Virus record (IMG/VR): IMGVR_UViG_3300045988_155207
Coordinates: 1 to 38,429 of that record
Length of the DNA stretch: 38,429 nucleotides
Reading direction: 5' to 3' (one strand)
Source of the DNA: a virus
The notes below the pieces were generated by a model. That model worked only from the letters and a program-made list of their open reading frames with translations. It was not told where the DNA came from and did not search any database. Positions 6,853 to 35,704 of the stretch are shown piece by piece. The translations under genes and the position numbers were made by a program. Position 1 is the first letter of the stretch. Every line of letters begins with the position of its first letter.

Positions 6853-8575
6853 GGGCGTTAGAATAAATTACGGCGTTATTGACCAAACATTGCAGGACGA
6901 CACTATTACTTACGAAACAAGCTCAGACAGCGTGTACTCAGAATTGCACAACACAACGCAAAACGCCGTAGATTTTGATAAAATTGCGTACCTTGAAAAG
7001 GACTATTTTTTGCTTGACGGCACTTTTATCTTTCCAGACACAAACGGTAGCTATGACGTTGGGTGGGAAAGTGCAAGCATTGCGGACGTTAATGGCAATA
7101 TAAACGATTATATCGAGTATGTGTTCAATAATTTACACGACAGTTACGGTATACAGATAATTTTCCCGACAGATTGCGCGGCAGATACATTTACTGTTGA
7201 ATATTTTAACGGCAATAGCCTTGTCGGCGCTAATACAGTTACGGGCAATACCGCTGTAAACTATGTAAACTACGACGTGCGTATGCAGTGGGACAGAGTG
7301 CGCATTACGTTCACAAAGGTCAAGCCGCAACAACGCGCGCGGTTGTTGCAGATTGTATTCGGAATAAACGAATTATACGATGAGGATATGCTAATAAGCG
7401 TTTCAGCGAGCAGAACAACGGACTTGACGGGTGACTATGATGACAGCGGTGAATTTTCGTTTCAGTATTTTAACAACGGACGGTTTAACGTGCAGAGTAT
7501 TAACGACTTGCCTATCGGAATGCAGGAGGGTTTAAAAGTCGTTATTTATATAAAAAAGCGCGGGAGCGACGAGTATGTCATGTTCGGAAATTATTACAGC
7601 GAGAACACGAGCGTTGAAGAAAACGGCAATGTTATAACGGTCAGCGGCTATGATGAATTGTACGGATTGGGTGAAAGCGTATATCGCAACGGTATTGTTT
7701 ACACTGACGGCAGAAGTTTATACGACTGGGCGGAAGAGGTAGCAGAGGACGCGGGCATTACGCTTGCGGTTGACGACGCATTTAAGGATATTATCTCAAC
7801 GGGCTATATAACCGAAGTCCCGCACAGAGAGGCGTTACGCCTTATAGCGGAAGCAGGCAACGGCATACTCGTTATCGACGCGAACGGCAACATTGCACTC
7901 AAAAAACATACGCCGACGGAAAAAGGCGCATTGACTGCGGACGATATTGTCGAGGGCAGTTATTCCGTTGAGAATAGCGATAAACACATCGGTATAAATG
8001 TAACTAAATACACGTTCAGCGCGGCAAGTGCAGAGCAGGAACTTGGACATTTAGAAGAAATTGGGCTTACGGTAGAGCCGCAGGAAATAGAGATTGTTTA
8101 CAGCGAATATCCCGCCGTTATATCCACGATACAGGTATTCGTCGATACTACAAGTTCGGCGCAAATAACTTCAACAAAAATTTATTCTGACCGTTGCGTT
8201 ATAACATTGACAGGTACGGCGGGAGATACCACGTTCGTTACCGTTACGGGCAGACCGTATAACCGCGCTACTACAAAGGTTACACGCGGCAGTACGGCAA
8301 AAAATATAAAAGCAATCGAAAGCAATTATTTAATTACAGGCAGTATAGCAACAAGCGTCGCTAATTATCAATATGAACGCGTTGTTAATAAATATACGCA
8401 TAAGGCGGAGATAGTCAGCGAAACAGACTTTGACCTTGGCGACCACATAGAAATAGATACTGAAAACAGCACAGTATCAACGCAATCTACGGGCGACGGG
8501 CAATACATTACCAGCGTTGCGTTCAATATTTCTTATGACGAAAATGAGACTACAATAGAGGCATTAGATGAATAA
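6842..8575 (+). CDS. Tail-tip/baseplate protein (Tal-like, putative)
   Basis: 577 aa, in the position of the tail-associated protein after tape measure and Dit. Confidence 0.45.
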   Translation: MIIEGVRINYGVIDQTLQDDTITYETSSDSVYSELHNTTQNAVDFDKIAYLEKDYFLLDGTFIFPDTNGSYDVGWESASIADVNGNINDYIEYVFNNLHDSYGIQIIFPTDCAADTFTVEYFNGNSLVGANTVTGNTAVNYVNYDVRMQWDRVRITFTKVKPQQRARLLQIVFGINELYDEDMLISVSASRTTDLTGDYDDSGEFSFQYFNNGRFNVQSINDLPIGMQEGLKVVIYIKKRGSDEYVMFGNYYSENTSVEENGNVITVSGYDELYGLGESVYRNGIVYTDGRSLYDWAEEVAEDAGITLAVDDAFKDIISTGYITEVPHREALRLIAEAGNGILVIDANGNIALKKHTPTEKGALTADDIVEGSYSVENSDKHIGINVTKYTFSAASAEQELGHLEEIGLTVEPQEIEIVYSEYPAVISTIQVFVDTTSSAQITSTKIYSDRCVITLTGTAGDTTFVTVTGRPYNRATTKVTRGSTAKNIKAIESNYLITGSIATSVANYQYERVVNKYTHKAEIVSETDFDLGDHIEIDTENSTVSTQSTGDGQYITSVAFNISYDENETTIEALDE

Positions 8576-17319: not shown

Positions 17320-17712
17320 ATGTGGAAAACGATAAACATCAACAGACAGAACATCAGAACGGAGACGGATAAGGCGGTGCTGATCGCCTGCCCTCACGCC
17401 AGCGATTATAACGGGTATTGCTTTTGGCACCCGTCAAAGCTGGTGCGCGAGGGCAGACACAAGGGCGCGGTATCAATCAGCTACACCGAAGAATTTACTT
17501 TCCGTTTGAAAAAATACGGTAAAGGCAGATACAACAGCCACGAAGTTATAGACGAGATACAGCTCGGTTATGACGAATTGGAAGAAGTATTCGGAGTTAT
17601 GAACGATAATATATCTGCGCCGCAATTCAAGAACGATTATGAAACGCACAAGCCCGAGGCGGTGGAGGCGGTCAAGACAGAGGCGGACGCAAGTCTGATA
17701 GAAAATGAATAA
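17320..17712 (+). CDS. Hypothetical protein, distant paralog of the previous gene (TETDKAVLI...WHPSK)
   Basis: 130 aa, AAGGAG RBS. Confidence 0.5.
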   Translation: MWKTININRQNIRTETDKAVLIACPHASDYNGYCFWHPSKLVREGRHKGAVSISYTEEFTFRLKKYGKGRYNSHEVIDEIQLGYDELEEVFGVMNDNISAPQFKNDYETHKPEAVEAVKTEADASLIENE

Positions 17713-18913
17713 TCAGCAAGCGGCGTTTGAAAAGCTCTCACGGCTCAAAGTCGGTGCGCTGTTCATGGAGATGGGGACGGGCAAGACGAAAGTCGCGCTC
17801 GACCTCATAGCCTCAAAGCGGCACAAAGTCGATTATATCCTGTGGATTTGCCCGTACTCGCTCAAAAGCGAGATTGAGGCGGAGCGGAAGAAATGGCACG
17901 CTGATTTAAGGCTTGATATTGTCGGGTGTGAAAGTATTGGGTCAAGTGACAGAATATACCTTGAAACGCTCCGAAAGGTAGCGGGTCGGCGGGCGTTTAT
18001 AGTCGTTGACGAGAGCCTGAAAATAAAAAACCGCGAGGCAAAGCGCACGGAACGAATTTTGCGGCTGGGGGAAACGGCAGAATACAAGCTGATCTTGAAC
18101 GGAACGCCGTTATCAAAAAACGTGCTCGATTTGTGGACGCAAATGCAATTCCTTTCTCCGAAAATCCTGAATATGAATTACAATCAGTTCAAGAATACGT
18201 ATTGCGAGTATTACATTCGCGGACGGCTGAAAGGGCTTGTAAAAAAGCAACATAATGTTGAACATTTAATTGCGAAAATCGAGCCGTATATTTTCGATAG
18301 CGAGCTGGAACTTGGCAAGCGAAAGAATTATATCGACTATACCTACAAAATGGACGACCTCGCGGGATATGATGAATTAAAAATGAGCTACTTGCAAGCC
18401 CCGATATTCGACTTTATGGCGGTTTCGCAGGTTCTACAACAGCACTATTGCAAAAGCGGGGGAAAAGCCGAAATAATCGAAAATTTGATAAATGAGATAA
18501 ACGAACAAGTTATAGTGTTTGTCAAGTATTTGAGCAGTATTCCGAAAGGGGCAGCGGCTTTAATCGGAGATATGAACGAGCGGGAGCGCGAGGCGGTTAT
18601 AAACGGTTTTCGCGCGGGCAAAATCAAAGTTTTGTATGTGACATACGGGTGCGGGGCTTTCGGGCTTAATCTTCAATGTTGCAAGTATATGATATTTGCC
18701 GACCATACCTTTGACTATGCCCAGCGCATACAGGCAGAGGCGCGAATTTTCCGTCTCGGGCAAGCCGATGACGTGCATTATTACAGCTTGTGGTGTAATT
18801 GTGGACTGGAACGCCTTATAAAAGGCAGTTTAGACAAGAAAACAAGCCTCTTGAATGAGGTTAAAAAAGAAATTGATAAAAAAGGAGCGGATAAATGGCT
18901 AAGAAGTATTTGA
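17705..18913 (+). CDS. SNF2-family (SF2) ATPase/helicase, compact form
   Basis: 402 aa. Walker A GTGKT, motif II VVDESLKIKN, LNGTPL, and C-terminal helicase motifs (...GFRAGKIKVLYVT..GLNLQ...ARIFRLGQ). Confidence 0.75.
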   Translation: MNNQQAAFEKLSRLKVGALFMEMGTGKTKVALDLIASKRHKVDYILWICPYSLKSEIEAERKKWHADLRLDIVGCESIGSSDRIYLETLRKVAGRRAFIVVDESLKIKNREAKRTERILRLGETAEYKLILNGTPLSKNVLDLWTQMQFLSPKILNMNYNQFKNTYCEYYIRGRLKGLVKKQHNVEHLIAKIEPYIFDSELELGKRKNYIDYTYKMDDLAGYDELKMSYLQAPIFDFMAVSQVLQQHYCKSGGKAEIIENLINEINEQVIVFVKYLSSIPKGAAALIGDMNEREREAVINGFRAGKIKVLYVTYGCGAFGLNLQCCKYMIFADHTFDYAQRIQAEARIFRLGQADDVHYYSLWCNCGLERLIKGSLDKKTSLLNEVKKEIDKKGADKWLRSI

Positions 18914-20202
18914 AAAAGAATGTTTACGACGCAGCGCGCGAGCGTATAGCAGTTGCATTTCGTGACTTCGATAATGTACTTGTAGCGTTTTCGGGCGGCA
19001 AAGATAGCGGCGTTTTGCTTAATCTCTGCTATGACTATGCGAAAGAAAACGGACTGCTGGACAAAATGGCTATGTATTACGAGGATTACGAGGGCGGTTA
19101 TAACCTGACCGCTGAATATGTGGAGCGGACTTTCAACGGCTTTGAGGGCATAAAAAAGTATTGGCTTTGCCTGCCGATAAAGGCGCGCTGCTCGGTGTCT
19201 ATGTTTCAAACGCATTGGACGCCGTGGGACAGGGATTGCCGCGACATATGGATAAGGGAATACCCGAAAAGCCCGTATCTGATAACCGAGGACAACAGCC
19301 CGTTTGAGTTTGTGAAAAATACAAGCGGTTTTGATACTCGCGTGCTATTCTCAAAGTGGTTTTCAAATACTTACGGCAAGACTGCCGTAATGGTCGGCAT
19401 AAGAGCAGATGAAAGCCTTTCGCGCCTTGCAATTATCACGAGCGGGCAGCGGAAATATATGCACGCTGGACTGTCATATACGAAAACGATTGACGAAAAC
19501 ACCGTGAATTTTTACCCGATTTACGATTGGACGACCGCCGACGTGTGGATCGGCAACGCAAAAATGGGCTGGGATTATAATAGGCTTTACGACCTGTTTT
19601 ATCAGGCGGGGCTGTCAATCGACCAAATGCGAGTTGCAAGCCCGTTTCACGATTGCGGACAAGCGAATTTGAAGCTGTTCCGCGTGATAGAGCCGCAGAC
19701 GTGGGGGCGTATGGTGAGCCGTGTCAACGGCGTGAATTTTACGGGCATATATGGCGGCACTACCGCTATGGGCTGGAAGAACATAAAAAAGCCCGAGCAT
19801 TTCACGTGGAAAGAGTATATGGAGTTTTTGCTTTCCACTCTGCCCGAAGAAACGCGCAAGCGGTATGAGCAGAAGTTTGAAAAAAGCAAGTGGCATTGGC
19901 GTGTTCAAGGCGGCGCGCGCAGCGAGGAGTTTATCAAGCAGCTGGAAGCCGAGGGCGCATCGATACGTCGGAGTGGGCGCACGTCAAAGGCTTGTAAGGT
20001 CAATACTGACCGCGAAGTCGTATATATTGACGACTGGATAGACGATACCAGCGTCGAGGAGTTCCGCAAGGCTCCGACGTACAAGCGCGCCTGCATAGCA
20101 ATTCTGAAAAACGACGTGCAATGCCTTTACTGCGGTTTCAGCAGGACAAAGAGCGAGGAAGAAAAACGCCGCAAAGCGTTAGAAAAGTATAAAAATTTAT
20201 AG
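18895..20202 (+). CDS. PAPS-reductase-family PP-loop protein with DUF3440-like C-terminus (IbrA/DndC-like)
   Basis: 435 aa. SGGKDS PP-loop motif near the N-terminus, plus the size and architecture of IbrA-like proteins. Confidence 0.65.
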   Translation: MAKKYLKKNVYDAARERIAVAFRDFDNVLVAFSGGKDSGVLLNLCYDYAKENGLLDKMAMYYEDYEGGYNLTAEYVERTFNGFEGIKKYWLCLPIKARCSVSMFQTHWTPWDRDCRDIWIREYPKSPYLITEDNSPFEFVKNTSGFDTRVLFSKWFSNTYGKTAVMVGIRADESLSRLAIITSGQRKYMHAGLSYTKTIDENTVNFYPIYDWTTADVWIGNAKMGWDYNRLYDLFYQAGLSIDQMRVASPFHDCGQANLKLFRVIEPQTWGRMVSRVNGVNFTGIYGGTTAMGWKNIKKPEHFTWKEYMEFLLSTLPEETRKRYEQKFEKSKWHWRVQGGARSEEFIKQLEAEGASIRRSGRTSKACKVNTDREVVYIDDWIDDTSVEEFRKAPTYKRACIAILKNDVQCLYCGFSRTKSEEEKRRKALEKYKNL

Positions 20203-20214
20203 GAGAAAGGAGCA

Positions 20215-20727
20215 ATGTATCAATCACCCGTTTACTCGGTTATCGCTGTGCCGATTGAAAAAATACAAGCGAATGCATACAACCCGAACGCGGTTGCGCC
20301 GCCCGAAATGAAGCTGCTGTATCAGTCAATCAAGGAAGACGGCTATACAATGCCGATTGTATGTTATTATCTGAAAGAGCAGGACAAATACGAGATAGTG
20401 GACGGCTTTCACCGTTACCGCACAATGCTTGAACACAAGGACATTTACGACCGAGAGGGCGGCAAGCTGCCCGTCGTCGTGATAGACAAGGATATTTCCA
20501 ACAGAATGGCAAGCACGATCCGCCACAACCGCGCACGCGGCACGCACTCAATCGAGCTGATGACAAATATCGTCGCGGAGCTGGTAGAGGGGGGAATGTC
20601 CGACGCGTGGATAATGAAAAATATCGGAATGGACGCGGACGAACTGCTGCGCCTGAAACAAATCAGCGGGCTTGCCGCGCTGTTCAAAGATAAAGATTTT
20701 ACAAACGCTTGGGAGGTAGGAAAATGA
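20215..20727 (+). CDS. ParB/Srx-fold nuclease-like domain protein (IbrB/DndB-like)
   Basis: 170 aa with the motifs ANAYNPN and IVDGFHRYRT (DGxHR). Confidence 0.65.
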   Translation: MYQSPVYSVIAVPIEKIQANAYNPNAVAPPEMKLLYQSIKEDGYTMPIVCYYLKEQDKYEIVDGFHRYRTMLEHKDIYDREGGKLPVVVIDKDISNRMASTIRHNRARGTHSIELMTNIVAELVEGGMSDAWIMKNIGMDADELLRLKQISGLAALFKDKDFTNAWEVGK

Positions 20728-27222: not shown

Positions 27223-29520
27223 ATGAAAATATTTAATTATGACAATATTCCCACCGAGTTAAAAGTTCAAAAAAATTGGGTATGCTGGAGCAACGACAAG
27301 CTGCCGAAAAATCCGCACACAGGCGGTAATGCACAAAGCAACAACAAAAGCACTTGGGGAACATTTGACGAGGCGATAAAAGCCGTTGACAAATATGGCT
27401 TTGGCGGAGTGGGCTTTATGTTTGAACCGCCTTTTTTTGGTATAGATTTAGACAAGTGTCTTGATAGTGCAGAGTTCATCGAGGAGTTCGTCGAAACGCT
27501 GCAAAGCTATACAGAAATAAGCAAGAGCGGAAACGGTATTCACATAATCTGTAAGGGCACGCTCCCCGCTGGCGCAAAACGGCGCGGCAATGTGGAAATG
27601 TACAGCGAGCGGCGGTACTTCATTATGACGGGGAAACTATATTGCGATAAATATCGCAATATAGTAGATTGCACGGAAACGATAAAACCTCTCCACGCAA
27701 AATATCTTGGCGACAATACGCCCAAAGTTGCGCCGAAAATTGTAATGCCGATTGATATTTCTGACGAGGAAATTGTCGATAAAGCCCGCAGTTGCAAGAC
27801 GGGCGCAGCTTTTCAACTTTTGTATAGTGGCGGCTGGCAAGGCATTTACAACAGTCAAAGCGAGGCAGACCTTGCGCTTTGTAATCAGCTTGCATTTTGG
27901 ACGCAGCGTGACGCCGCACGAATGGATAGGATATTCCGCACAAGCGGTTTAATGCGTCCAAAATGGGACACAAAGCGCGGCGCGTACACCTATGGACAAC
28001 TTACCATAGAAAAGGCTATCGCGGCGTGTACGGACGTTTACGAGCCTAAAACGGTACAGGACGACACGAGCCTTGCTATTAGCTTTTTCCGAGACGGTAA
28101 AAGCCGTGTGGAAATGCCCAAAAACAACTACGATATGACCGACACGGGCAACGCTCAACGTATGCGCGACAAGTTCGTCGGCAATATCAAGTATTCGTTC
28201 GTTCATAAAAAGTGGTATTATTGGACGGGCAAAGTGTGGGCGGTTGACTACACCGGCGAGATTAAAAAACTTGCAGACGAGATTGTCAACGACATGAAGA
28301 AAGAGGCGTTTGCTCAAGACGATGAAGATGTGCGTGACGCTAAATTAAAGTGGGCGAACAAGACCGCTTCGTCAAGGGGCAAAGAGGCAATGATTAAAGA
28401 GTGCCAGCACCTTGACGGCATACCCGTACTGCCCGAAGAAATGGACGCGTACACGGATTATTTGAACGTGCAAAACGGTATCGTAAATCTGCGTAACGGC
28501 GAGTTAATGCCGCACGACAGCGCGTTTATGATGACAAAGTGCGGGTATGCCGAGTATGACAATACGAGTGGCAAACAGCCCGAATTATGGCTGAAATTCC
28601 TTGACGATATAACGGACGGCGACAAGGAAACGGTTGATTATTTGCAAAAATGTATAGGCTATTCACTTTCGGGAAGTGTTCGCGAACAGCAAGCATATGT
28701 TCTTTACGGTATAGGCAATAATGGCAAAAGCACATTTTTAGACACGATAAGCGAGCTGTTAGGCGGGTATGCGAGTAACGTACAGCCTGAAACGATTATG
28801 CTTCGAAGAAACGGTGACAGCGGCGCGAACAGCGATATAGCACGCCTGAAAAGCGCAAGGTTTGTCACGTCGGAAGAACCGACGGAAGGCGTGCGGCTTA
28901 ACGAGGGGCTTGTCAAACAACTTACGGGCGGTGGCAAAGTAACGTGCCGTTTCCTTTACGGCGATGAGTTCGAGTACGAGCCTGAATTTAAGATATGGAT
29001 TGCCACAAATCACAAGCCCGTTATCCGGGGGACAGATGTGGGTATTTGGCGCAGAATACGCCTTATACCTTTCGAGGTCAATATACCGAAAGAAAAGGTT
29101 GATAAAACGCTTAAATATAAGTTGCGCAAGGAATTGCCGCAAATCATGAAATGGGCGGTTGACGGCTGTATTAAGTGGCAGAAAGAGGGGCTTACGCCCC
29201 CTGCAAGGGTGGAGCAAGCCACTGGCGAATATAAAGCCGAAATGGACTTGCTGGCGGCGTTTTGTGACGCGTGTATCACGATTGATTATGTCAATGGCGA
29301 GCGCATATCCGCGACAGACCTTTTCTCGGTATATGCGGCATGGGCAAACAGCAACAATGAATTTGCGATGAGTTCGCGCAAGTTTTTTAACGAGGTGACG
29401 AAAAAGCTGCCCGAAAAGGTACGCGGGGGAAGCGGTATGTTTTATACAAAAATTCATTTGACGGACTATGCAAAAACATTTTTGCCGCGTAAAAACTATT
29501 CGATTGAGGACTTTAAGTGA
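27223..29520 (+). CDS. Bifunctional primase-polymerase / SF3 (P4-type) helicase
   Basis: ATG at 27223 with GGAG RBS. Prim-pol N-terminal domain. C-terminal Walker A GIGNNGKST with D5/P4-like region. Confidence 0.8.
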   Translation: MKIFNYDNIPTELKVQKNWVCWSNDKLPKNPHTGGNAQSNNKSTWGTFDEAIKAVDKYGFGGVGFMFEPPFFGIDLDKCLDSAEFIEEFVETLQSYTEISKSGNGIHIICKGTLPAGAKRRGNVEMYSERRYFIMTGKLYCDKYRNIVDCTETIKPLHAKYLGDNTPKVAPKIVMPIDISDEEIVDKARSCKTGAAFQLLYSGGWQGIYNSQSEADLALCNQLAFWTQRDAARMDRIFRTSGLMRPKWDTKRGAYTYGQLTIEKAIAACTDVYEPKTVQDDTSLAISFFRDGKSRVEMPKNNYDMTDTGNAQRMRDKFVGNIKYSFVHKKWYYWTGKVWAVDYTGEIKKLADEIVNDMKKEAFAQDDEDVRDAKLKWANKTASSRGKEAMIKECQHLDGIPVLPEEMDAYTDYLNVQNGIVNLRNGELMPHDSAFMMTKCGYAEYDNTSGKQPELWLKFLDDITDGDKETVDYLQKCIGYSLSGSVREQQAYVLYGIGNNGKSTFLDTISELLGGYASNVQPETIMLRRNGDSGANSDIARLKSARFVTSEEPTEGVRLNEGLVKQLTGGGKVTCRFLYGDEFEYEPEFKIWIATNHKPVIRGTDVGIWRRIRLIPFEVNIPKEKVDKTLKYKLRKELPQIMKWAVDGCIKWQKEGLTPPARVEQATGEYKAEMDLLAAFCDACITIDYVNGERISATDLFSVYAAWANSNNEFAMSSRKFFNEVTKKLPEKVRGGSGMFYTKIHLTDYAKTFLPRKNYSIEDFK

Positions 29521-30317
29521 TGAACATTTTTAATCTTTCGTTCGGTAAAGATAGTATGGCGACACTTATTCTTGCCGCCGAGCAAGGCATACCGATTGAC
29601 CGCGTTATGTATTGCGATATTCGGTTTAATAACGAAATAAGCGGCGAACACCCGCTTATGGCAGAGTGGATACCGACGGCGGAGCGGATATTGAAAGAGC
29701 GGTTTGGGATAACCGTTGAACACACGTTTGGCAAAACTTATTTGGAGGCATTTTATACTGTAAAAAAAACTGGGAGATTTTCTGGCAAAATTTACGGTTT
29801 TCCATATATTCGTGGCGCTTGGTGTAACCATATATTAAAATTAAATGCAATATCAAAATATCTTTCTCAATTCAAGAAACAAACAATAACTCAATTCGTG
29901 GGTATCGCATGTGATGAGCCACGGCGTTGGGAAAGAATGAAAGCGAAAGAAAATTCTCGAAAAAAGTATCGTTCGCTTCTTGTTGAACAAAACCTCACCG
30001 AGCAAGACGCTTTTCGTATTTGCAAAAAATACGGGCTTCTTTCTCCGTTATACAAAAGCAATGACAGCATATTCCGTGGTGGTTGTTGGTTTTGTCCGAA
30101 ACAATGTAGTGCGGATTTATATAGCCTTTGGAAAAACTATCCCGATTATTATCAAAAACTTGTTGATATTGAAAATGACAGCAGGATTATTAACAAATTC
30201 AAGCCCGACGGCAATCCGTCCGATTATGCCAAACGCTTTGAAGCGGGTTATGTGCCGAAACGGAGAAAGAAACAGCAGACGTCCGAACAGCTGGATATGT
30301 TTAAGGACTTCAAATAA
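29520..30317 (+). CDS. PAPS-reductase-like PP-loop protein, paralog 1
   Basis: SFGKDS PP-loop and a C-terminal GGCWFCPKQC motif. Paralog of 33613-34416. Confidence 0.65.
   Translation: MNIFNLSFGKDSMATLILAAEQGIPIDRVMYCDIRFNNEISGEHPLMAEWIPTAERILKERFGITVEHTFGKTYLEAFYTVKKTGRFSGKIYGFPYIRGAWCNHILKLNAISKYLSQFKKQTITQFVGIACDEPRRWERMKAKENSRKKYRSLLVEQNLTEQDAFRICKKYGLLSPLYKSNDSIFRGGCWFCPKQCSADLYSLWKNYPDYYQKLVDIENDSRIINKFKPDGNPSDYAKRFEAGYVPKRRKKQQTSEQLDMFKDFK
29547..29611 (+). repeat. 65-nt segment 100% identical to 33640-33704 (within about 170 nt of roughly 90% identity)
   Basis: Direct sequence comparison of the 5' ends of the two paralogs. Confidence 0.8.
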
Positions 30318-30396
30318 ACGCACGAAAACGCACGCGTGTGTTTTATAATCGCACGCGTGCATTTATAAAATTTTATCAAAAAATATAAAAAAATGA

Positions 30397-30425
30397 TTGA
30401 CAAATAAAGCGGAATAAAGTATAAT
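30397..30425 (+). promoter_or_regulatory. Promoter TTGACA (30397-30402)-17-TATAAT (30420-30425) with A-tract UP
   Basis: Perfect consensus. Confidence 0.65.
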
Positions 30426-30456
30426 ATACTTACAATAAAGGTTAAGGAGATAAGAA

Positions 30457-30642
30457 ATGTTTAAGTTGACTTTTTTTGTAAAGGCAGACGGTTGGATTGG
30501 CGGAGGATATGAGAATGTCCATTACTTTAGAACGAAGCGCGAATCGAAAGAGTGGCTGAAGAAGCCGTGGAACGCTTGCTGCTCGCTTATTTCGCTTGAA
30601 TATGTGAGTATGAAAGAAGCGGCAAGAGATATTATTCTGTGA
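30457..30642 (+). CDS. Small hypothetical protein
   Basis: 61 aa, AAGGAG RBS. Confidence 0.45.
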   Translation: MFKLTFFVKADGWIGGGYENVHYFRTKRESKEWLKKPWNACCSLISLEYVSMKEAARDIIL

Positions 30643-30665
30643 TATTATTCTATAAGGAGTAAAAA

Positions 30666-30851
30666 ATGACAAAGCAAGAAAAGTTGATAATTTGGTACAC
30701 GCAAAGGCTTGAAAAAGTAAAAGCCGCGTATGCTGGGGATTGGCGCAAAGATGAGTATATCGCAGCGGCTGAAAAAGACCTCGAAGAAGTAAAAAACGGC
30801 AGAAACTGGCACGAGCTTGTGATAAATACAGTAAAGGAGGCAGAGGTTTGA
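30666..30851 (+). CDS. Small hypothetical protein
   Basis: 61 aa, AAGGAG RBS. Confidence 0.45.
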   Translation: MTKQEKLIIWYTQRLEKVKAAYAGDWRKDEYIAAAEKDLEEVKNGRNWHELVINTVKEAEV

Positions 30852-30852
30852 T

Positions 30853-31173
30853 ATGAAAACACGCGAAGAACAGATTGAGGAAATGGCGAAAGCAATGTGC
30901 GAAGAATACGACACGGACATTTGCAAACACGAATGTCCAATGGCTACGGATTGCGCCAACATACTTATAGCAAAAAGGCTTATCGCCGCAGGCTACCGCA
31001 AGCAGAGCGAGGTGGCGAAGGAGTTTGTAGATAGGTTAATCTTAGAACTTATAGCGTTAAGAAGCGAGGAATTTGACGGAAAGGAGCTGGCGATAAATGG
31101 GAAAACCTATAAATATTTGGTTATGAGAGCAAAAGAAATTGCCGCTGAGTACGGCGTGGAGGTGGAAGAATGA
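30853..31173 (+). CDS. Hypothetical Cys-containing protein
   Basis: 106 aa. Confidence 0.45.
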   Translation: MKTREEQIEEMAKAMCEEYDTDICKHECPMATDCANILIAKRLIAAGYRKQSEVAKEFVDRLILELIALRSEEFDGKELAINGKTYKYLVMRAKEIAAEYGVEVEE

Positions 31174-31562
31174 AAACAATTAACGAAATTTTGGAGAATT
31201 ACAAGGAATACGAAACTTTTCTTGATGATAGATTCGGTATAAGACTTTGCAATTTCTTGACAGTAGAACAAGCGGAAAGAATCGGATTTACTTTCAAAGA
31301 TGAGTATAAAGATAAACACGTCCCAAAAGAATGGACGGAAGAAAATATAATAGAACAATTAAAAGAAGATATTCTTTTTGGTTGGGAAAAGGCTTGCGAT
31401 GAAAGGGGTATTTCCGCTAATCTTATGTATGAGGTTGTAAAAACTTGGTGTAAAGTTTTAGAAAATGAATATAAAGATTTTAATGCTTATGCGCCATACG
31501 GGAAGCCTTTGTTTAGAGCAGTTGCAAAAAAGTATAGTATAGAATTGGAGGACGAAGAATGA
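31170..31562 (+). CDS. Hypothetical protein
   Basis: 130 aa. Confidence 0.45.
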   Translation: MKTINEILENYKEYETFLDDRFGIRLCNFLTVEQAERIGFTFKDEYKDKHVPKEWTEENIIEQLKEDILFGWEKACDERGISANLMYEVVKTWCKVLENEYKDFNAYAPYGKPLFRAVAKKYSIELEDEE

Positions 31563-31642
31563 AAGCAGTTTTAATGAGCATAAAGCATAAGTGGTGCGAG
31601 CTGATATTCGGCGGCGCGAAAGACGGCAATCAAGCGTCGTAA
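31559..31642 (+). pseudogene. Truncated ASCH-domain-like gene remnant (27 codons)
   Basis: MKAVLMSIKHKWCELIFGGAKDG resembles the ASCH N-terminus (MKALLLSIKPEYAEKIF..G.K). GGAGG RBS. Stops after 27 aa and is followed by a promoter. Confidence 0.35.
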
Positions 31643-31657
31643 AAAATAAAAAAATTA

Positions 31658-31686
31658 TTGACATTTTAACGGAGGTAAAGTAAAAT
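31658..31686 (+). promoter_or_regulatory. Promoter TTGACA (31658-31663)-17-TAAAAT (31681-31686)
   Basis: Consensus -35, good -10, A-tract UP. Confidence 0.6.
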
Positions 31687-31692
31687 AAAGGT

Positions 31693-32277
31693 ATGGAACA
31701 GTTCAACATTGAATGGAAAGATATTGCAAGCGTAAAACCTTACGCCCGCAACGCAAAGAAGCACGATGAAACGCAGATTGCAAACGTTGCCGAGAGTATC
31801 AAGCAATTCGGCTGGCAGCAGCCTATCGTATGTGACGCGGACGGCATTATCATTATCGGGCATTGCCGCCTTTTAGCGGCGAAAAAACTCGGGTTGAAGA
31901 AAGTACCCGTCAAGACTGCGGATAACCTTTCCGACGAACAGGTCAAAAAGCTGCGCGCGCTCGATAACAAGCTGAACGAGAGCGACTGGGACTTTGACTT
32001 GCTCGCCGATGATATAGGCGAACTTGACTTTTCGGGCTTTGATATTGACTGGGGAATTGTTTCTCCTGATGATTACGGTGAAAGTTTTGAATTGCCTGAC
32101 GGCGATAAAAGCGAAATATGCCAAATGACATTTACTCTTCATGAGAGGCAAGCCGAATTGATAAAAGAGGCAATGAAAAACGTAAAAGATGATATAACGG
32201 AAACTTTTGGTAATACGAATAGCAACGGAAATGCTCTTTATGAGGTGGTTCGGCAATGGGCAGAGCAAAGGAAATAA
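31693..32277 (+). CDS. ParB N-terminal (ParB-like nuclease) domain protein
   Basis: 194 aa. ...KPYARNAKKHDETQIANVAESIKQFGWQQPIVCDADGIIIIGHCRLLAAKKLG... Confidence 0.7.
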   Translation: MEQFNIEWKDIASVKPYARNAKKHDETQIANVAESIKQFGWQQPIVCDADGIIIIGHCRLLAAKKLGLKKVPVKTADNLSDEQVKKLRALDNKLNESDWDFDLLADDIGELDFSGFDIDWGIVSPDDYGESFELPDGDKSEICQMTFTLHERQAELIKEAMKNVKDDITETFGNTNSNGNALYEVVRQWAEQRK

Positions 32278-33002
32278 TTGTAAAGGTAATTCCTCGAAAT
32301 TTAGCAAATGACTTTATTGTAAAACATCATTATTCTCATAAATATATGCAATCAAGTCAAGTACATTTCGGAGTTTTTTGGGGAAATAATTTACATGGTG
32401 TTATGCAATTTGGAAGCTGTATTGACAGAAAAAAAATGCAAACTCTTGTAAGTGATTGCGAATGGACTTCTTTTTTAGAATTAAATCGTATGGCGTTTGA
32501 TGACGTTTTGCCCCCAAATAGTGAAAGCAGGGCAATTTCGATTGCTATTAAATTATTAAAAAAATATGCTCCTCAAGTAAAATGGATTATTTCTTTTGCA
32601 GACGGGTGTTCCTGTGGAGATGGCACAATTTATCGTGCAAGCGGATTTGTTTTGACGGATATAAAAAAGAATTTTAATCTTTGTGAATTGCCAAATGGAG
32701 AAAAAATACATAAATTGACGCTTGAAAATAATCCAAATCAGCCAAGAAAAGAGTTAAATGGTAAAAGTTATTATGAAATTACAAGTGGAAAATATTCTTT
32801 TAAAAAATATGTTCAAGTAGCCAACGCAAAAATACTTGAAGGGTATCAATTCAGATACATTTATTTTATCGATAAATCATATAAAAAGCGGCTGACGGTG
32901 CCTATTATTCCGTTTTCCGAAATAGACAAAATCGGCGCGGGAATGTATAAGGGAGAAAAAGTAAGCCGAGAAGAACGGCACAATAAAAAGCACTCCGAAT
33001 AA
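32256..33002 (+). CDS. Mom-like (GNAT-fold) DNA-modification protein (putative)
   Basis: 248 aa, very AT-rich. N-terminal KHHYSHK...FGVFW.NNLHGVMQFGS and WIISFADGCSCGDGTIYRASGF resemble the Mom adenine-carbamoylmethylation family. This is a recollection of a pattern, not verified. Confidence 0.45.
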   Translation: MGRAKEIIVKVIPRNLANDFIVKHHYSHKYMQSSQVHFGVFWGNNLHGVMQFGSCIDRKKMQTLVSDCEWTSFLELNRMAFDDVLPPNSESRAISIAIKLLKKYAPQVKWIISFADGCSCGDGTIYRASGFVLTDIKKNFNLCELPNGEKIHKLTLENNPNQPRKELNGKSYYEITSGKYSFKKYVQVANAKILEGYQFRYIYFIDKSYKKRLTVPIIPFSEIDKIGAGMYKGEKVSREERHNKKHSE

Positions 33003-33014
33003 ACGAAGTGCTTT
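32981..33014 (-). terminator. Minus-strand rho-independent terminator (8-bp stem AAAGCACT/AGTGCTTT, then UUUUUAUUG in the minus-strand transcript)
   Basis: The U-run exists only in the minus orientation. Sits immediately 3' of the tRNA-like gene. The stop codon of the Mom-like gene lies in the loop. Confidence 0.5.
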
Positions 33015-33017
33015 GCG

Positions 33018-33092
33018 TGGAGCGTACAGGTCGGAGTTGAACCGCCTTAAACTTACAGGAATGCAAGCGCATTAACGATATGCTATGTACGC
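33018..33092 (-). ncRNA. tRNA-like RNA gene (cloverleaf-compatible, CCA encoded; atypical anticodon and T arms)
   Basis: On the minus strand there is a perfect 7-bp acceptor stem GCGTACA/TGTACGC, a discriminator U and an encoded CCA. U8 and A14 are present. The D-stem is GCAT/ATGC. The anticodon stem is CTTGC/GTAAG with a 6-nt loop ATTCCT. The T-stem is GGCGG/CCG(A)CC with a bulged A, and the T-loop is TTCAACT. The element is 75 nt long. Confidence 0.45.
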
Positions 33093-33105
33093 ATATGATA
33101 TTATA

Positions 33106-33134
33106 ATTATAGCGCAAAATTTTTATTTTGTCAA
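33106..33134 (-). promoter_or_regulatory. Minus-strand consensus promoter (TTGACA = rc of 33129-33134; 17-bp spacer; TATAAT = rc of 33106-33111)
   Basis: Perfect hexamers on the minus strand. The predicted transcription start is about 6 nt upstream of the tRNA-like 5' end. Confidence 0.6.
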
Positions 33135-33152
33135 TAAAAAAGAGGTGGTTTT

Positions 33153-33626
33153 TTGGCGCGTAAACAGGACGAAAACCTTATTCCGAATAGTCAAAGAAGT
33201 CCGAGCGAAGTTCGAGCAAACAGCTCAAAAGGCGGAATAAAAAGCGGACAGGTACGGCGGCAGAAAAAAACCGTTGCCGAATATCTCCGAAAATGGGCGG
33301 ACGGAGAGGTCAGCGAAAAGAATAAAAAGGCGTTAGAAGCGTTGGGTTTGAGTGAAGAAGCCACGAACCGAACGCTTCTCGTCGTGCCGTTGATAAAAAA
33401 GGCAAGCAGCGGCGACACAAAAGCCCTGCAAATGGCGTTGGAGCTTTTGGGCGAAGATAAGAAGAAAGAACTCGAAATTAAGAAGCTACGGCGCGAAATT
33501 GAGTTGTTAAAAGCCGAAACGCAAAAGTTGCGTATGATGACGGGCGAGGACAGGGAGGTCGAGGACTTAACCGCGCTCGGGGATATGTTGCGGGTAGATA
33601 GTGAGGACGACGATGAACATATTTAA
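33153..33626 (+). CDS. Terminase small subunit (putative)
   Basis: 157 aa with TTG start and AGAGGTGG RBS. Basic N-terminus and coiled-coil C-terminus. Positioned immediately upstream of the packaging genes. Confidence 0.45.
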   Translation: MARKQDENLIPNSQRSPSEVRANSSKGGIKSGQVRRQKKTVAEYLRKWADGEVSEKNKKALEALGLSEEATNRTLLVVPLIKKASSGDTKALQMALELLGEDKKKELEIKKLRREIELLKAETQKLRMMTGEDREVEDLTALGDMLRVDSEDDDEHI

Positions 33627-34416
33627 TTTATCATTTGGAAAAGATAGTATGGCGACACTTATTCTTGCCGCCGAGCAAGGCATACCGATTGACCGCGTTA
33701 TGTACTGCGAAATTAAGTTTAATGACGAAATAAGCGGCGAGCACCCTCTTATGGCGGAATGGATTCCGACCGCAGAAAGGCGGCTGAAAGAGTTATTCGG
33801 CATAACGGTTGACCACGCGTATAGCGGAGTGAGCTTTGAGGAGCAATTTTACAAGGTCAAACAAAAAGGTAATCACGCAGGGGATAGGTATGGCTTTCCG
33901 TATGTTGTAGGCGCGTGGTGTAATGACAGGTTAAAGCTGGGTGCGATAAGCAAATATCAGGCGCAGTTTGGCAATAACAGAATCACACAATTCGTCGGAA
34001 TTGCCTATGACGAGCCTATCCGTTGGGAACGTATGAAGAAGAAAGAAACGGAAAAATGCAAATACCGCTCTCTGCTCGTCGAGCAAAACCTTACTGAACA
34101 AGACGCGTTTGAGATATGCAAGCGTTATGACCTATTATCGCCGATATACAGCGTAGACGGAATATATCGCGGCGGTTGCTGGTTTTGCCCGAAACAATGT
34201 CTTGCCGATTTGCATAGCCTGTGGAAGAATTATCCTAAACTATGGCAAAAATTATGCGATATTGAGCCTGAAAGCCATAATACTTTTAAGCCGAATTGTA
34301 CACTTGCAGAATTACAAGCACGGTTTGAGAATGGATATATCCCAAAACGTAAAAAAGTAAAACAAAATTTTATACAAACAAGTATGTTTGACTATGAAAA
34401 AAACACAGACGATTGA
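33613..34416 (+). CDS. PAPS-reductase-like PP-loop protein, paralog 2
   Basis: ATG at 33613. Same SFGKDS and GGCWFCPKQC motifs, and a nearly identical N-terminal 60 aa to paralog 1. Confidence 0.65.
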   Translation: MNIFNLSFGKDSMATLILAAEQGIPIDRVMYCEIKFNDEISGEHPLMAEWIPTAERRLKELFGITVDHAYSGVSFEEQFYKVKQKGNHAGDRYGFPYVVGAWCNDRLKLGAISKYQAQFGNNRITQFVGIAYDEPIRWERMKKKETEKCKYRSLLVEQNLTEQDAFEICKRYDLLSPIYSVDGIYRGGCWFCPKQCLADLHSLWKNYPKLWQKLCDIEPESHNTFKPNCTLAELQARFENGYIPKRKKVKQNFIQTSMFDYEKNTDD

Positions 34417-35704
34417 TTGGAAGCCGTTCAGCGAAAAGCATAAAGCATACATACGCAACGCGTTGCGTTGCAAGATGAGCGTTGCCGAAGGATCTATTCG
34501 TAGCGGTAAGACGATTGATAACTGTATCATAGCCGCCGCCTATCTCGAACGTTGCAAGGACAAAATACACCTTGCAAGCGGAAGTACTATTGGCAATGCA
34601 AAGCTGAATATCGGTGCGTGTAATGGCTTCGGGCTTGAAAATCTTTTCCGAGGGCGGTGCAAATGGGGCAAATATAAAGGCAATGAGTGTTTGTATCTTT
34701 TCACCCAAACTGGGGAAAAGATACTAATATTCGCGGGCGGCGGGAAGAGCGACAGTTACAAGAAAATACTCGGTAACTCCTACGGGCTGTGGATAGCAAC
34801 GGAAATTAACGAACATTACGACAGCGACGACAGCCGCGAGAGCTTTATCAAAGTTGCGTTCGGCAGACAGGTTGCGAGCTATGAGCCGAAAATATTGTGG
34901 GATTTGAACCCTTGCGCACCGCGTAACAAGATTTATGATGAATATATTGACCTGTACAAAAAAACGTACATTGGCGGATATAACTATGAACATTTCACGC
35001 TCGCAGACAATTACAGCATAACCGAACAACGGCGCAAAGAGATTGAGGCGCAGTACGATCCGAACTCGGTATGGTACAGGCGCGATATACTGGGACAACG
35101 TACGGTTGCCGAGGGGCTGGTGTATCAGCAATACGCGAATACGCCCGATGAGTATGACGTGAAAGAGGTCAACCCCGCTGACCTTATGGCGGTTAATATC
35201 GGAGTGGACTTCGGCGGGAACGGCTCTGCGCACGCGTTCGTCGCTACCGGCTTTTTGCGGCGCTTTGAAAAGGTTATCCCTTTACAAAGCGTAAGGATAA
35301 CCGAAGCTATCGACCCCGAACAACTTAACCAAAGGTTTGCAGATTTTACAAAAATCGTGTATAATCAGTACAGAAAGCCGATGAACGTCTACGCCGACAG
35401 CGCAGAGCAGGTGCTTATCCGGGGATTGCGTAAGGTAGGCGTTACAGAACGCCTACCTATCGTGATACACAACGCCCGTAAATTGCCCATAAACGACAGA
35501 ATAAGGCTCGTTAATAAACTCATCGCGCAGAACCGTTTCGGGGTTTGTAGGGGCGCACAGAGCGTTAAATCGGCATTGTGCGAGGCGTTATGGAATCCGA
35601 AGAAAGAAGATGAGCGATTGGACGATAATTCGAGCGACATCGACTCTGTCGACGCCCTCGAATATTCGATTGAACCTTTCTTCGGCGAATTATCAAGAAT
35701 ATAA
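34388..35704 (+). CDS. terL: Terminase large subunit
   Basis: 438 aa. Walker A GSIRSGKT, followed by a nuclease-domain acidic residue pattern. Confidence 0.85.
   Translation: MTMKKTQTIDWKPFSEKHKAYIRNALRCKMSVAEGSIRSGKTIDNCIIAAAYLERCKDKIHLASGSTIGNAKLNIGACNGFGLENLFRGRCKWGKYKGNECLYLFTQTGEKILIFAGGGKSDSYKKILGNSYGLWIATEINEHYDSDDSRESFIKVAFGRQVASYEPKILWDLNPCAPRNKIYDEYIDLYKKTYIGGYNYEHFTLADNYSITEQRRKEIEAQYDPNSVWYRRDILGQRTVAEGLVYQQYANTPDEYDVKEVNPADLMAVNIGVDFGGNGSAHAFVATGFLRRFEKVIPLQSVRITEAIDPEQLNQRFADFTKIVYNQYRKPMNVYADSAEQVLIRGLRKVGVTERLPIVIHNARKLPINDRIRLVNKLIAQNRFGVCRGAQSVKSALCEALWNPKKEDERLDDNSSDIDSVDALEYSIEPFFGELSRI

Follow-up and report, generated by a model that had tools for sequence, protein, structure and literature searches.

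Why should a gene for a Mom-family DNA-modifying enzyme, an enzyme that was an enigma for 40 years, lie directly behind a gene for a ParB-like protein and overlap it? The question is raised by IMG/VR virus record IMGVR_UViG_3300045988_155207, of which the whole stretch from position 1 to 38,429 was analyzed (38,429 nt, hereafter the window, to which coordinates refer unless another record is named). An initial annotation, made from the letters of the sequence, had noted a promoter-driven ParB–Mom pair at 31658–33002. The pair is real; it was, however, presented as a one-off, and it proved to be a strictly conserved module of one Mom clade at the terminase junction. The most informative part of that module, a neighboring tRNA-Gly-like gene, had been overlooked. 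We consider it probable that the three components make up a DNA hypermodification module, with Mom as the enzyme, ParB as its activator and the RNA as a glycine carrier reserved for it.

A Mom-family enzyme and a ParB-like protein encoded by overlapping genes

31693..32277, + strand: ParB-like protein, 194 aa, with an N-terminal ParB/CTPase-fold domain (about residues 1–100), an acidic linker and a C-terminal domain (about residues 135–194)
32256..33002, + strand: Mom-family GNAT, 248 aa, overlapping the ParB gene by 22 nt

Both open reading frames (ORFs), and the 22-nt overlap between them, lie exactly where the initial annotation had placed them. Its Mom assignment, made by pattern recognition only, is upheld by profile, sequence and fold comparisons. 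The 248-aa protein matched Pfam PF25680 over profile positions 2–201 of 202 (187.2 bits against a cut-off of 27.1; E = 4e-55), PHROG 1384 'Mom-like' (E = 8e-52) and, by phmmer, the Mu Mom crystal chain 8bv8_A (E = 5.4e-27). Its AlphaFold2 model (predicted local distance difference test score, pLDDT, 84.7) had 8bv8 as the top PDB match (E = 5e-20; template modeling score, TM, 0.62–0.76), followed by GNATs. The beta6-beta7 insertion in the GNAT fold of Mom is present in the window protein, in a longer form than that of Mu. The family to which it belongs is large, with more than 8000 proteins in a word-indexed search and 1513 clusters at 50% identity.

In Mu Mom, residues R111, S124, D149 and R151 are essential or nearly so, and H58, Y59, Y159, W48 and W181 are important (PMC13219725). 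Six of these (H58, Y59, R111, S124, D149 and Y159) are kept in the window protein, as H25, Y26, R78, S91, D116 and Y126, and across its clade. The motifs quoted earlier are real and map onto these residues: KHHYSHK onto H58/Y59, FAD onto D149 and DGTIYRA onto Y159. The clade lacks the N-terminal extension of Mu Mom and has a conserved C-terminal tail, PFSxIDxxGAGMYKG, which is absent from stand-alone Moms. We considered this tail as a possible ParB-docking peptide; AlphaFold2 packs most of it onto the domain (pLDDT 73–95 to about residue 230), which speaks neither for nor against that role. The predicted activity is DNA modification at adenine N6, dependent on an aminoacyl-tRNA.

The ParB assignment fared equally well. 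The protein matched Pfam ParB_N (PF02195; 30.3 bits against a cut-off of 26.3, E = 4e-7), PHROG 620 (E = 6e-40; about 1e-40 for PHROG 620/930) and, in a profile search of the PDB, Spo0J (E = 1.7e-9). Residues 1–100 were modeled confidently (AlphaFold2 pLDDT 80–94), with the Bacillus subtilis ParB-CDP structure 6sdk as the best fold match (root-mean-square deviation 2.4 Å over 98 columns), and the closest relatives by both structure and sequence were the nucleoside triphosphate (NTP)-binding domains of chromosomal ParB, Noc and KorB. Box II reads GHCRxxAAKKLG, and N20, K22 and R59 align with NTP-site residues of ParB. Compared with the canonical GERRxRA, the window's G56-H57-C58-R59-x-x-A62 keeps the G, the second R and the A, with the catalytic E changed to H and the first R to C; in Box I, N20 and K22 replace the canonical Q and R. 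With these residues, NTP binding is plausible and NTP hydrolysis uncertain.

The Pfam scan detected no helix-turn-helix (HTH) domain, only about the first 100 residues matched ParB structures, and no ParA gene was found among the window genes scanned; the protein is therefore not a partition protein. Its most conserved part is the C-terminal domain, for which Pfam and PDB profile searches gave no match and whose beta-alpha-alpha pattern suggests a possible ribbon-helix-helix. Five ParB homologues (P0161, P0162, P0165, P0169 and P0226) have a divergent N-terminal domain (GHGR, 'IGIWGK') joined to a C-terminal half almost the same as that of the window protein, which indicates recombination between the two ParB domains.

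ParB directly precedes Mom throughout one clade

To place the pair in context, we surveyed 26 viral contigs with a related Mom and 79 loci from species-representative bacterial genomes. On the viral contigs, a full ParB gene lies directly upstream of mom in 21, a ParB gene cut by the contig end in one, and the remaining four have no upstream DNA. Among the bacterial loci, ParB is directly upstream in every one that has an upstream ORF (77/77), usually overlapping mom by 8–34 nt. The hosts are mostly gut Clostridia, but also include Treponema, Prevotella, Alistipes, Collinsella, Planctomycetota, Chloroflexota, Myxococcota and others, and the arrangement recurs in different phage backbones. No ParB neighbor was present at the seven more distant stand-alone Moms examined as controls (those of Mu/D108, with com, JD024, Y8A ORF69, and Enterococcus, Bacillus, Porphyromonas and Arthrobacter phages). 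The ParB–Mom pairing is strictly conserved in this Mom clade and is not accidental.

A megablast search of positions 30000–35000 against 50,697 phage records returned no match, so the window has no sequenced close relative among phage isolates. A ParB-linked Mom is nonetheless encoded by an isolated phage, Psychrobacter phage vB_PmaS_Y8A (L031, OQ059336.1), as ORF17 (7125–7778 of that record; 51% identity to the window Mom), which is annotated 'hypothetical'. Phage Y8A would be a ready experimental system; it also encodes a stand-alone Mom of the Mu type (ORF69).

At about one fifth of the loci, two tandem Mom paralogues follow one ParB. These include L001, L002, L008 and L017 and about 18 genome loci (e.g., L043, L057, L067, L073 and L084), with Moms about 56–63% identical to that of the window, and the two paralogues may represent two sequence specificities. 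In L067, L073 and L084, the tandem Moms are followed by two tandem tRNA-like genes.

A tRNA-Gly-like gene lies immediately downstream of mom

33106..33134, − strand: perfect promoter of the tRNA-like gene, TTGACA-17-TATAAT (12/12), its -10 ending about 14 nt before the acceptor stem
33018..33092, − strand: tRNA-Gly-like gene, 75 nt, 19 nt past mom; hit of the covariance model described below
32987..33014, − strand: intrinsic terminator of the tRNA-like gene, an 11-bp stem then UUUUUAUUG; the mom stop codon (33000–33002) lies inside the hairpin

The spacer between mom and the small terminase gene (terS) was over-conserved, which led to a promoter/terminator pair on the minus strand and from there to RNA folding. 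On that strand, 32978–33100 folds with −40.1 kcal/mol (z = −4.5 against shuffles), and the element within it forms a cloverleaf: GCGUACA-UA-GCAU-AUCGUUA-AUGC-G-CUUGC-AUUCCU-GUAAG-UUUAA-GGCGG-UUCAACU-CCG(A)CC-UGUACGC-U-CCA. The acceptor stem GCGUACA/UGUACGC is followed by the discriminator U and an encoded CCA, and the T-loop is UUCAACU.

Bacterial glycyl-tRNA synthetase (GlyRS) recognizes U73, G1-C72, C2-G71 (G3-C70), C35 and C36, and the combination of U73 and G71 is said to be exclusive to tRNAGly (PMC9976931). The window element carries this identity set, i.e., G1-C72, C2-G71, G3-C70, U73, CCA and a CC in the loop (C35/C36). Its anticodon loop has six nucleotides (AUUCCU, holding UCC), its D-loop (AUCGUUA) has no GG (G18G19), and its T-stem (GGCGG/CCG(A)CC) has one bulged A. 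Given this structure, we class the element as tRNA-like instead of as a tRNA proper. Default ARAGORN and Rfam at gathering thresholds reported nothing in the window, owing to the shortened anticodon loop, the bulged T-stem and the lack of G18G19; at a relaxed threshold, ARAGORN called the element a tRNA-?(Glu|Gly) with a six-base anticodon loop.

As a side observation, the tRNA-like gene and its terminator (32982–33095, − strand) resemble, weakly and over the full length, the Rfam family RF02435, the SpF41 small RNA (23.5 bits against a gathering threshold of 52). SpF41 is an uncharacterized, strain-specific streptococcal small RNA whose consensus has an acceptor-like stem, a T-arm and a terminator, and it could represent this type of element in the prophages of streptococci.

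Mom-linked tRNA-like elements form a family with a conserved glycine-type acceptor end

In many related loci, ARAGORN reported aberrant 'tRNA-???' genes directly after mom. A covariance model (R1) was built from a seed of 37 elements of other loci, with the window left out. Searched against the whole 38-kb window, it gave a single hit, the element at 33018–33092 on the minus strand (62.2 bits, E = 3.4e-14), compared with 12 bits for a genuine tRNA-Gln used as a control, and it gave no hits at the seven stand-alone-Mom control loci.

In the seed, 95.5% of cells were paired on the cloverleaf, compared with 74% in shuffled and 41–52% in slid alignments, and none of 500 shuffles was as good. Compensatory changes occur in 15 of the 20 seed pairs. 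Acceptor pairs 4–7 vary freely and pairs 1–3 are constrained, and the register of the T-stem bulge is backed by covariation of pairs 49-65 and 50-64.

An element was found downstream of mom at about 80 of 111 ParB–Mom loci (about 72%), within 60 nt in 65 of them (median 26 nt). It usually has the same orientation as mom; six, like that of the window, are on the opposite strand, and one of these six belongs to a Candidatus Scatosoma contig, which is the closest genomic relative. Two copies are present at four loci, among them that of phage Y8A, in which two D-arm-poor tRNA-Gly-like copies, both unannotated, lie between mom and terS (about 7786–7926 of that record).

The 77 distinct elements are nearly uniform at the acceptor end, with GCG at positions 1–3 in 74, CGC at 70–72 in 74, U73 in 75 and an encoded CCA in 59, and the anticodon loop contains CC in 75. 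The loop itself has seven nucleotides in 30 elements, six in 18 and four in 29; an extra nucleotide bulges from the 3′ strand of the T-stem in 61, and some elements have no D-arm. The Rfam tRNA threshold (RF00005) was passed by 5 of 18 Mom-adjacent elements tested, and the other 13 and the window element reached no Rfam threshold. The invariant positions are, from the alignment, those that bacterial GlyRS reads, and the decoding parts are degraded. The tRNA-like RNA is, on this comparative evidence, real and conserved, with a glycine-type acceptor end and a non-decoding anticodon arm.

Canonical tRNAs at ParB–Mom loci are tRNA-Gly in 11 of 18 cases. Small tRNA clusters lie upstream of ParB–Mom in L014 (2314–3022) and L016 (1836–3768), each with two tRNA-Gly and with tRNA-Thr, and these canonical copies might serve counter-defense as well as Mom.

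The module at the terminase junction and its recent evolution

33153–33626, + strand: probable small terminase (PHROG 2412, 424 and 2 for the three genes listed here)
33601–34416, + strand: PAPS-reductase-like gene inserted between terS and terL (PHROG 424)
34388–35704, + strand: large terminase (PHROG)

Genes in the window follow the order ParB, Mom, tRNA-like, TerS, PAPS-reductase-like, TerL and portal. Across 62 loci, the first large ORF past ParB–Mom encodes a TerL of one of several Pfam families, a ParB-methyltransferase (N6/N4) fusion (n = 14) or a PAPS reductase (n = 11). We propose that the module lies at the early/late boundary, just ahead of the packaging genes.

Comparison with a close relative, L027, revealed unequal divergence along the module. 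Identity is 88–98% in ParB, 60–63% in the first third of Mom and 98–100% in the mom-terS spacer. Synonymous (dS) and nonsynonymous (dN) divergence, estimated by the Nei-Gojobori method, was 0.30 and 0.02 for ParB and 0.89 and 0.215 for Mom, with a dS of 0.73 for TerS; in this lineage, the dS of mom is thus threefold that of ParB. The tRNA-like gene is the same at 75 of 75 positions, although the flanking genes have a dS of 0.7–0.9.

The low GC content of mom pointed out earlier was also found here (0.33, compared with 0.45 for ParB and 0.46 for the downstream flank). The drop is confined to the window lineage and a few others. Taken together with the identity, dS and dN of Mom relative to ParB, this indicates that mom alleles have been exchanged beneath a constant ParB. 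AT-richness of mom as a trait of the family was rejected, as the GC contents of Mom and ParB are equal in most lineages.

Proposed mechanism and alternative explanations

In the proposed module, the Mom-family GNAT would act post-replicatively on double-stranded phage DNA, at the N6 of adenine. If it behaves as Mu Mom does, the glycine would come from a glycyl-tRNA and the product would be N6-carbamoylmethyl-adenine, a base that would shield the phage DNA from host restriction enzymes. Host GlyRS would charge the tRNA-Gly-like RNA, which would be kept out of translation as a dedicated glycine donor for Mom. ParB, translationally coupled to Mom, may activate Mom or hold it on duplex DNA, as the ParB of the thymine dioxygenase 5mYOX176 would suggest. 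The product, the charging by GlyRS, the use of the RNA by Mom and the activation or tethering by ParB are all parts that we infer. A wider reading takes the scheme to the large Mom clade as a whole, with a ParB needed on duplex DNA and a phage-encoded, translation-incompetent tRNA-Gly mimic that host GlyRS would load with glycine solely for use in DNA modification; it is more tentative, and there we lean slightly to the side of doubt.

Several observations weigh against the three-part module. Mu Mom needs nothing but host tRNA, which means that the Mom fold has no inherent requirement for either partner. About 25–30% of ParB–Mom loci have no detectable element (in two loci tested, also with filters off); the tRNA-like RNA is therefore accessory, and host tRNAGly is presumably enough. 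No ParB–Mom fusion was found among the 120 best ParB homologues or the 150 best Mom cluster representatives (longest, 346 aa), which matters because a fusion would be the strongest genomic evidence of physical cooperation. For the ParB C-terminal domain, the AlphaFold2 monomer had a pLDDT below 50 and a fold was not obtained. Because ARAGORN, with which the seed was chosen, accepts only cloverleaves, the pairing taken by itself is in part built in; this selection does not account for the covariation, for the invariance of the identity positions or for the constant location of the elements. Finally, R151, essential in Mu, is C118 in the window and C or T in the clade, W48 of the Mu dimer interface is N15, and W181 is K or R in the window clade; with these three residues replaced, substrate handling, and possibly also the donor or the target, may differ. 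The R151 position sits within the invariant clade motif FAD[GA][CT][SQ]CGDG, and R151 is also missing from several stand-alone members, so it is not a defining residue of PF25680 as a whole. From the residue pattern, the catalytic core of the clade Moms is intact and their substrate handling probably differs.

The role given to ParB would fall away if ParB were unrelated to Mom catalysis and acted as a packaging or transcription DNA-binding protein of the terminase junction (for pac marking or late-gene regulation), with the modification genes as cargo. We regard this as unlikely, although the module always adjoins packaging genes, and the same site hosts ParB-methyltransferase fusions and PAPS reductases beside terminases of several Pfam families. 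In addition, Iyer and Aravind describe ParB-Tls loci whose methylases are predicted to act during packaging (PMC4738411), and ParB is far more conserved than Mom (dN 0.02 versus 0.215), with Mom alleles swapped under a constant ParB. The link is nevertheless specific to Mom and not merely to the terminase, ParB being directly upstream in 77/77 bacterial and 22/22 viral loci (one of the latter cut by the contig end). Where a ParB-methyltransferase is also present, it carries its own second ParB domain, which suggests one ParB per enzyme, and the experimentally studied phage ParB of such architecture is an enzyme activator.

We see equally little probability in a role for the tRNA-like gene other than as the donor of Mom, be it a counter-defense decoy or a replacement for host tRNAGly under attack from tRNA-targeting toxins, an RNase P/Z processing signal separating mom from the late transcript, an attachment-site remnant, or a small RNA antisense to the 3′ end of mom. 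Phage tRNAs are known as counter-measures to tRNA-targeting defense systems; tRNAGly and tRNAThr are the reported targets of toxSAS FaRel2 and of TacT-type GNAT toxins, and tRNA-Thr accompanies tRNA-Gly in L014 and L016. The terminator of the window element runs across the mom stop codon, though on the other strand, and there is the full-length SpF41 resemblance, weak at 23.5 bits against a threshold of 52. Yet in 65 loci, across diverse phyla and phage backbones, the element keeps its place no more than a few tens of nucleotides away from Mom, and it is absent from the stand-alone-Mom controls. A translation decoy would need a working anticodon, whereas here the positions read by GlyRS are invariant and the anticodon loop is destroyed. 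An attachment-site relic is disfavored because the elements are internal to prophages, away from the prophage ends, and because phage-specific compensatory changes occur in their stems, and an antisense role cannot be general because the element usually has the same orientation as mom.

A lower probability still is given to a clade Mom that uses another acyl donor or target than Mu Mom, with a product other than N6-carbamoylmethyl-adenine. The replacement of R151, W48 and W181 is in keeping with such a difference, as are the clade's own FAD[GA][CT][SQ]CGDG motif, longer beta6-beta7 insertion and PFSxIDxxGAGMYKG tail and its lack of the Mu N-terminal extension. The linked RNAs, however, keep glycine identity elements, and the canonical tRNAs at the locus are mostly tRNA-Gly (11/18), which together point to glycine as the transferred group.

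Least probable, and in our view very improbable, is a restriction-modification-like pair in which ParB is a nuclease or toxic effector against host or competitor DNA and Mom protects the phage DNA: ParB-fold domains can be nucleases, PHROG relatives are named 'ParB-like partition nuclease', and jumbo-phage Moms fused to restriction endonuclease domains have been interpreted as a restriction component (PMC7824862), but the window ParB is closest to the NTP-binding domains found in chromosomal ParB, Noc and KorB, its phosphate-binding positions N20, K22 and R59 are kept, no nuclease motif was identified in it, and the arrangement fits the activator-type ParB176.

The three-part module of Mom, ParB and glycine carrier thus remains the reading that we favor, and the tRNA dependence of Mom gains independent support from comparative genomics. 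The survey also suggests that the Mom-type systems of gut and environmental phages mostly exceed that of Mu in complexity. If the clade-wide proposal is true, Mom would be the second enzyme class with a dedicated ParB partner, after the thymine dioxygenases, and a dedicated tRNA-like donor would often be present and overlooked by standard annotation. The mimic would then be the viral counterpart of the non-proteinogenic tRNAGly of staphylococcal cell-wall synthesis, and the gradient that leads from normal tRNA-Gly genes to mimics having a 4-nt loop or lacking a D-arm would record a tRNA retired from translation into a cofactor. Confirmation would reveal a new use for tRNA mimics, a handle on the diversion of aminoacyl-tRNAs from the ribosome, and a compact three-gene cassette for sequence-specific DNA aminoacylation. 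More generally, 'hypothetical' intergenic DNA beside modification genes can conceal RNA cofactors.

Promoters of the window

31658..31686, + strand: sigma-70-type promoter-like site TTGACA-17-TAAAAT upstream of the ParB gene, matching 11/12 consensus positions
171, 8748, 13193, 13310, 16972, 21004, 26137, 30397 and 31658, + strand: near-perfect promoter sites of the TTGACA-17-TATAAT type
33134 and 135, − strand: near-perfect promoter sites of the same type

The pair had been described as driven by a consensus promoter at 31658. The site is real (11/12 positions), though on its own it might be a chance occurrence in AT-rich DNA. The window as a whole has 11 sites with at least 11/12 positions, compared with 0.8 expected from Markov shuffles (maximum 4 in 200); 9 of the 11 are on the coding strand and 10 have the 17-nt spacing. 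From this excess and the strand bias, the phage clearly uses consensus sigma-70-type promoters, and host-type promoters close to consensus seem to punctuate its genome.

The -10 element of the site at 31658 stops six bases ahead of the ParB ATG (31693). The spacing predicts a +1 on the A of that ATG and hence a leaderless ParB message; the only GGAGG near the start lies within the promoter spacer, 16 nt upstream. What needs correction is the generality of the promoter, since a dedicated ParB promoter is present only in the window and L027. In other lineages, ParB comes directly after another ORF and has an ordinary Shine-Dalgarno site. As a general mark of an independent ParB–Mom unit, the promoter was accordingly rejected.

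Homology with L027 begins at 31646, just ahead of the promoter, and the promoter and the start region of ParB are 100% identical in the two. A 27-codon ORF at 31560–31642 (MKAVLMSIKHKWCELIFGGAKDGNQAS) terminates just where this homology starts. By its appearance, it resembles the N-terminus of an ASCH-domain protein, and it may be a scar from the insertion of a promoter-ParB-Mom cassette.

Other modification genes in the window

The 38-kb phage has three genes of the PAPS-reductase (PP-loop) family, at 33601–34416, 29517–30317 and 18895–20202, of which both short ones were overlooked by Pfam and detected by PHROG 424. The gene at 33601–34416 is not at that position in L027; it is a paralogue of the gene after the primase (72% nucleotide identity to the L027 copy).

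The other ParB/modification pair mentioned in the initial annotation exists as well. It consists of a PAPS-reductase+DUF3440 gene (18895–20202) followed by a ParB_N gene (20215–20727), in a region (17705–20727) that begins with a SNF2-type helicase, and it is presumably an IbrA/IbrB-like pair. The two ParB proteins of the window are barely alike (39% identity over 31 residues). With three PAPS-reductase-like and two ParB genes, the gene content fits the suggestion of layered DNA modification.

Comparison with known systems

Taken alone, the ParB–Mom pair is of known kinds, i.e., the Mom family and the ParB-terminase locus; what is new is that the ParB partner is obligatory and that a tRNA-Gly mimic is linked to the pair. 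The literature searched has no report tying Mom to ParB or to adjoining tRNA-like genes, the search having stopped short of Iyer 2013 and the supplements of the Mom mechanism paper, so that an earlier mention is possible.

The prototype of the family is Mu Mom (com-mom; 8bv8), which moves glycine from Gly-tRNAGly to the N6 of adenine in double-stranded DNA, where the glycyl group then rearranges on the base to give N6-carbamoylmethyl-adenine (2026, PMC13219725). Every tRNAGly isoacceptor works and tRNAAla does not, and the main text of that paper treats the tRNA as scavenged from the host (PMC13219725). The window Mom shares the family, the fold and the core residues H58, Y59, R111, S124, D149 and Y159, and in both systems an upstream gene overlaps the start of mom (com in Mu/D108, ParB in the window). 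Identity is only about 32%, however, and the upstream partner is a ParB-fold protein, unlike the zinc-finger translational activator Com of Mu. The window clade also differs in having a C-terminal tail of its own and no R151, W48, W181 or N-terminal extension. Its module lies ahead of the terminase genes, that of Mu at the genome end, and the window encodes a tRNA-Gly-like RNA itself, in contrast to the reliance of Mu on host tRNA.

For ParB, the nearest parallel in architecture is ParB176 of the phage thymine dioxygenase 5mYOX176, which requires its cognate ParB on double-stranded DNA; that ParB consists of an NTP-binding and a C-terminal domain, with no DNA-binding domain (PNAS 2026, PMC13229309). 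Both are short phage ParBs with these two domains and no HTH, encoded beside a post-replicative DNA-modifying enzyme, and both have N instead of Q in Box I (N14 in ParB176, N20 in the window ParB). The partner enzyme differs, being an Fe/2-oxoglutarate dioxygenase in one case and a GNAT in the other.

The location has its precedent in the ParB-terminase locus, a home of phage DNA-modification genes according to Iyer and Aravind (PMC4738411). ParB-Tls loci likewise have ParB and modification genes directly upstream of the terminase, and in related loci the slot holds ParB-N6/N4 methylase fusions and PAPS reductases. The descriptions consulted name methylases, and neither Mom as cargo nor a linked tRNA-like gene appears in the literature searched.

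For the RNA, canonical tRNA-Gly (RF00005) shares the cloverleaf, the GCG...CGC-U-CCA acceptor end and a TψC-type loop with the window element, which differs in its short anticodon loop, T-stem bulge and lack of G18G19. A functional parallel may be found in Staphylococcus aureus. EF-Tu reads the T-stem, and S. aureus diverts three non-proteinogenic tRNAGly to cell-wall synthesis via T-stem changes (PMC9976931). These tRNAs, used by FemXAB for peptidoglycan bridges, keep the GlyRS identity and are altered in the T-stem region (PMC9976931), as are the Mom-linked elements. They are dedicated glycine donors for a GNAT-related transferase (PMC9976931), a role like that proposed here for the Mom-linked RNA. 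Their anticodon loop is normal, whereas many Mom-linked elements have a 4- or 6-nt loop and a bulged T-stem and some have no D-arm, and the glycine acceptor of the Mom-linked elements would be DNA.

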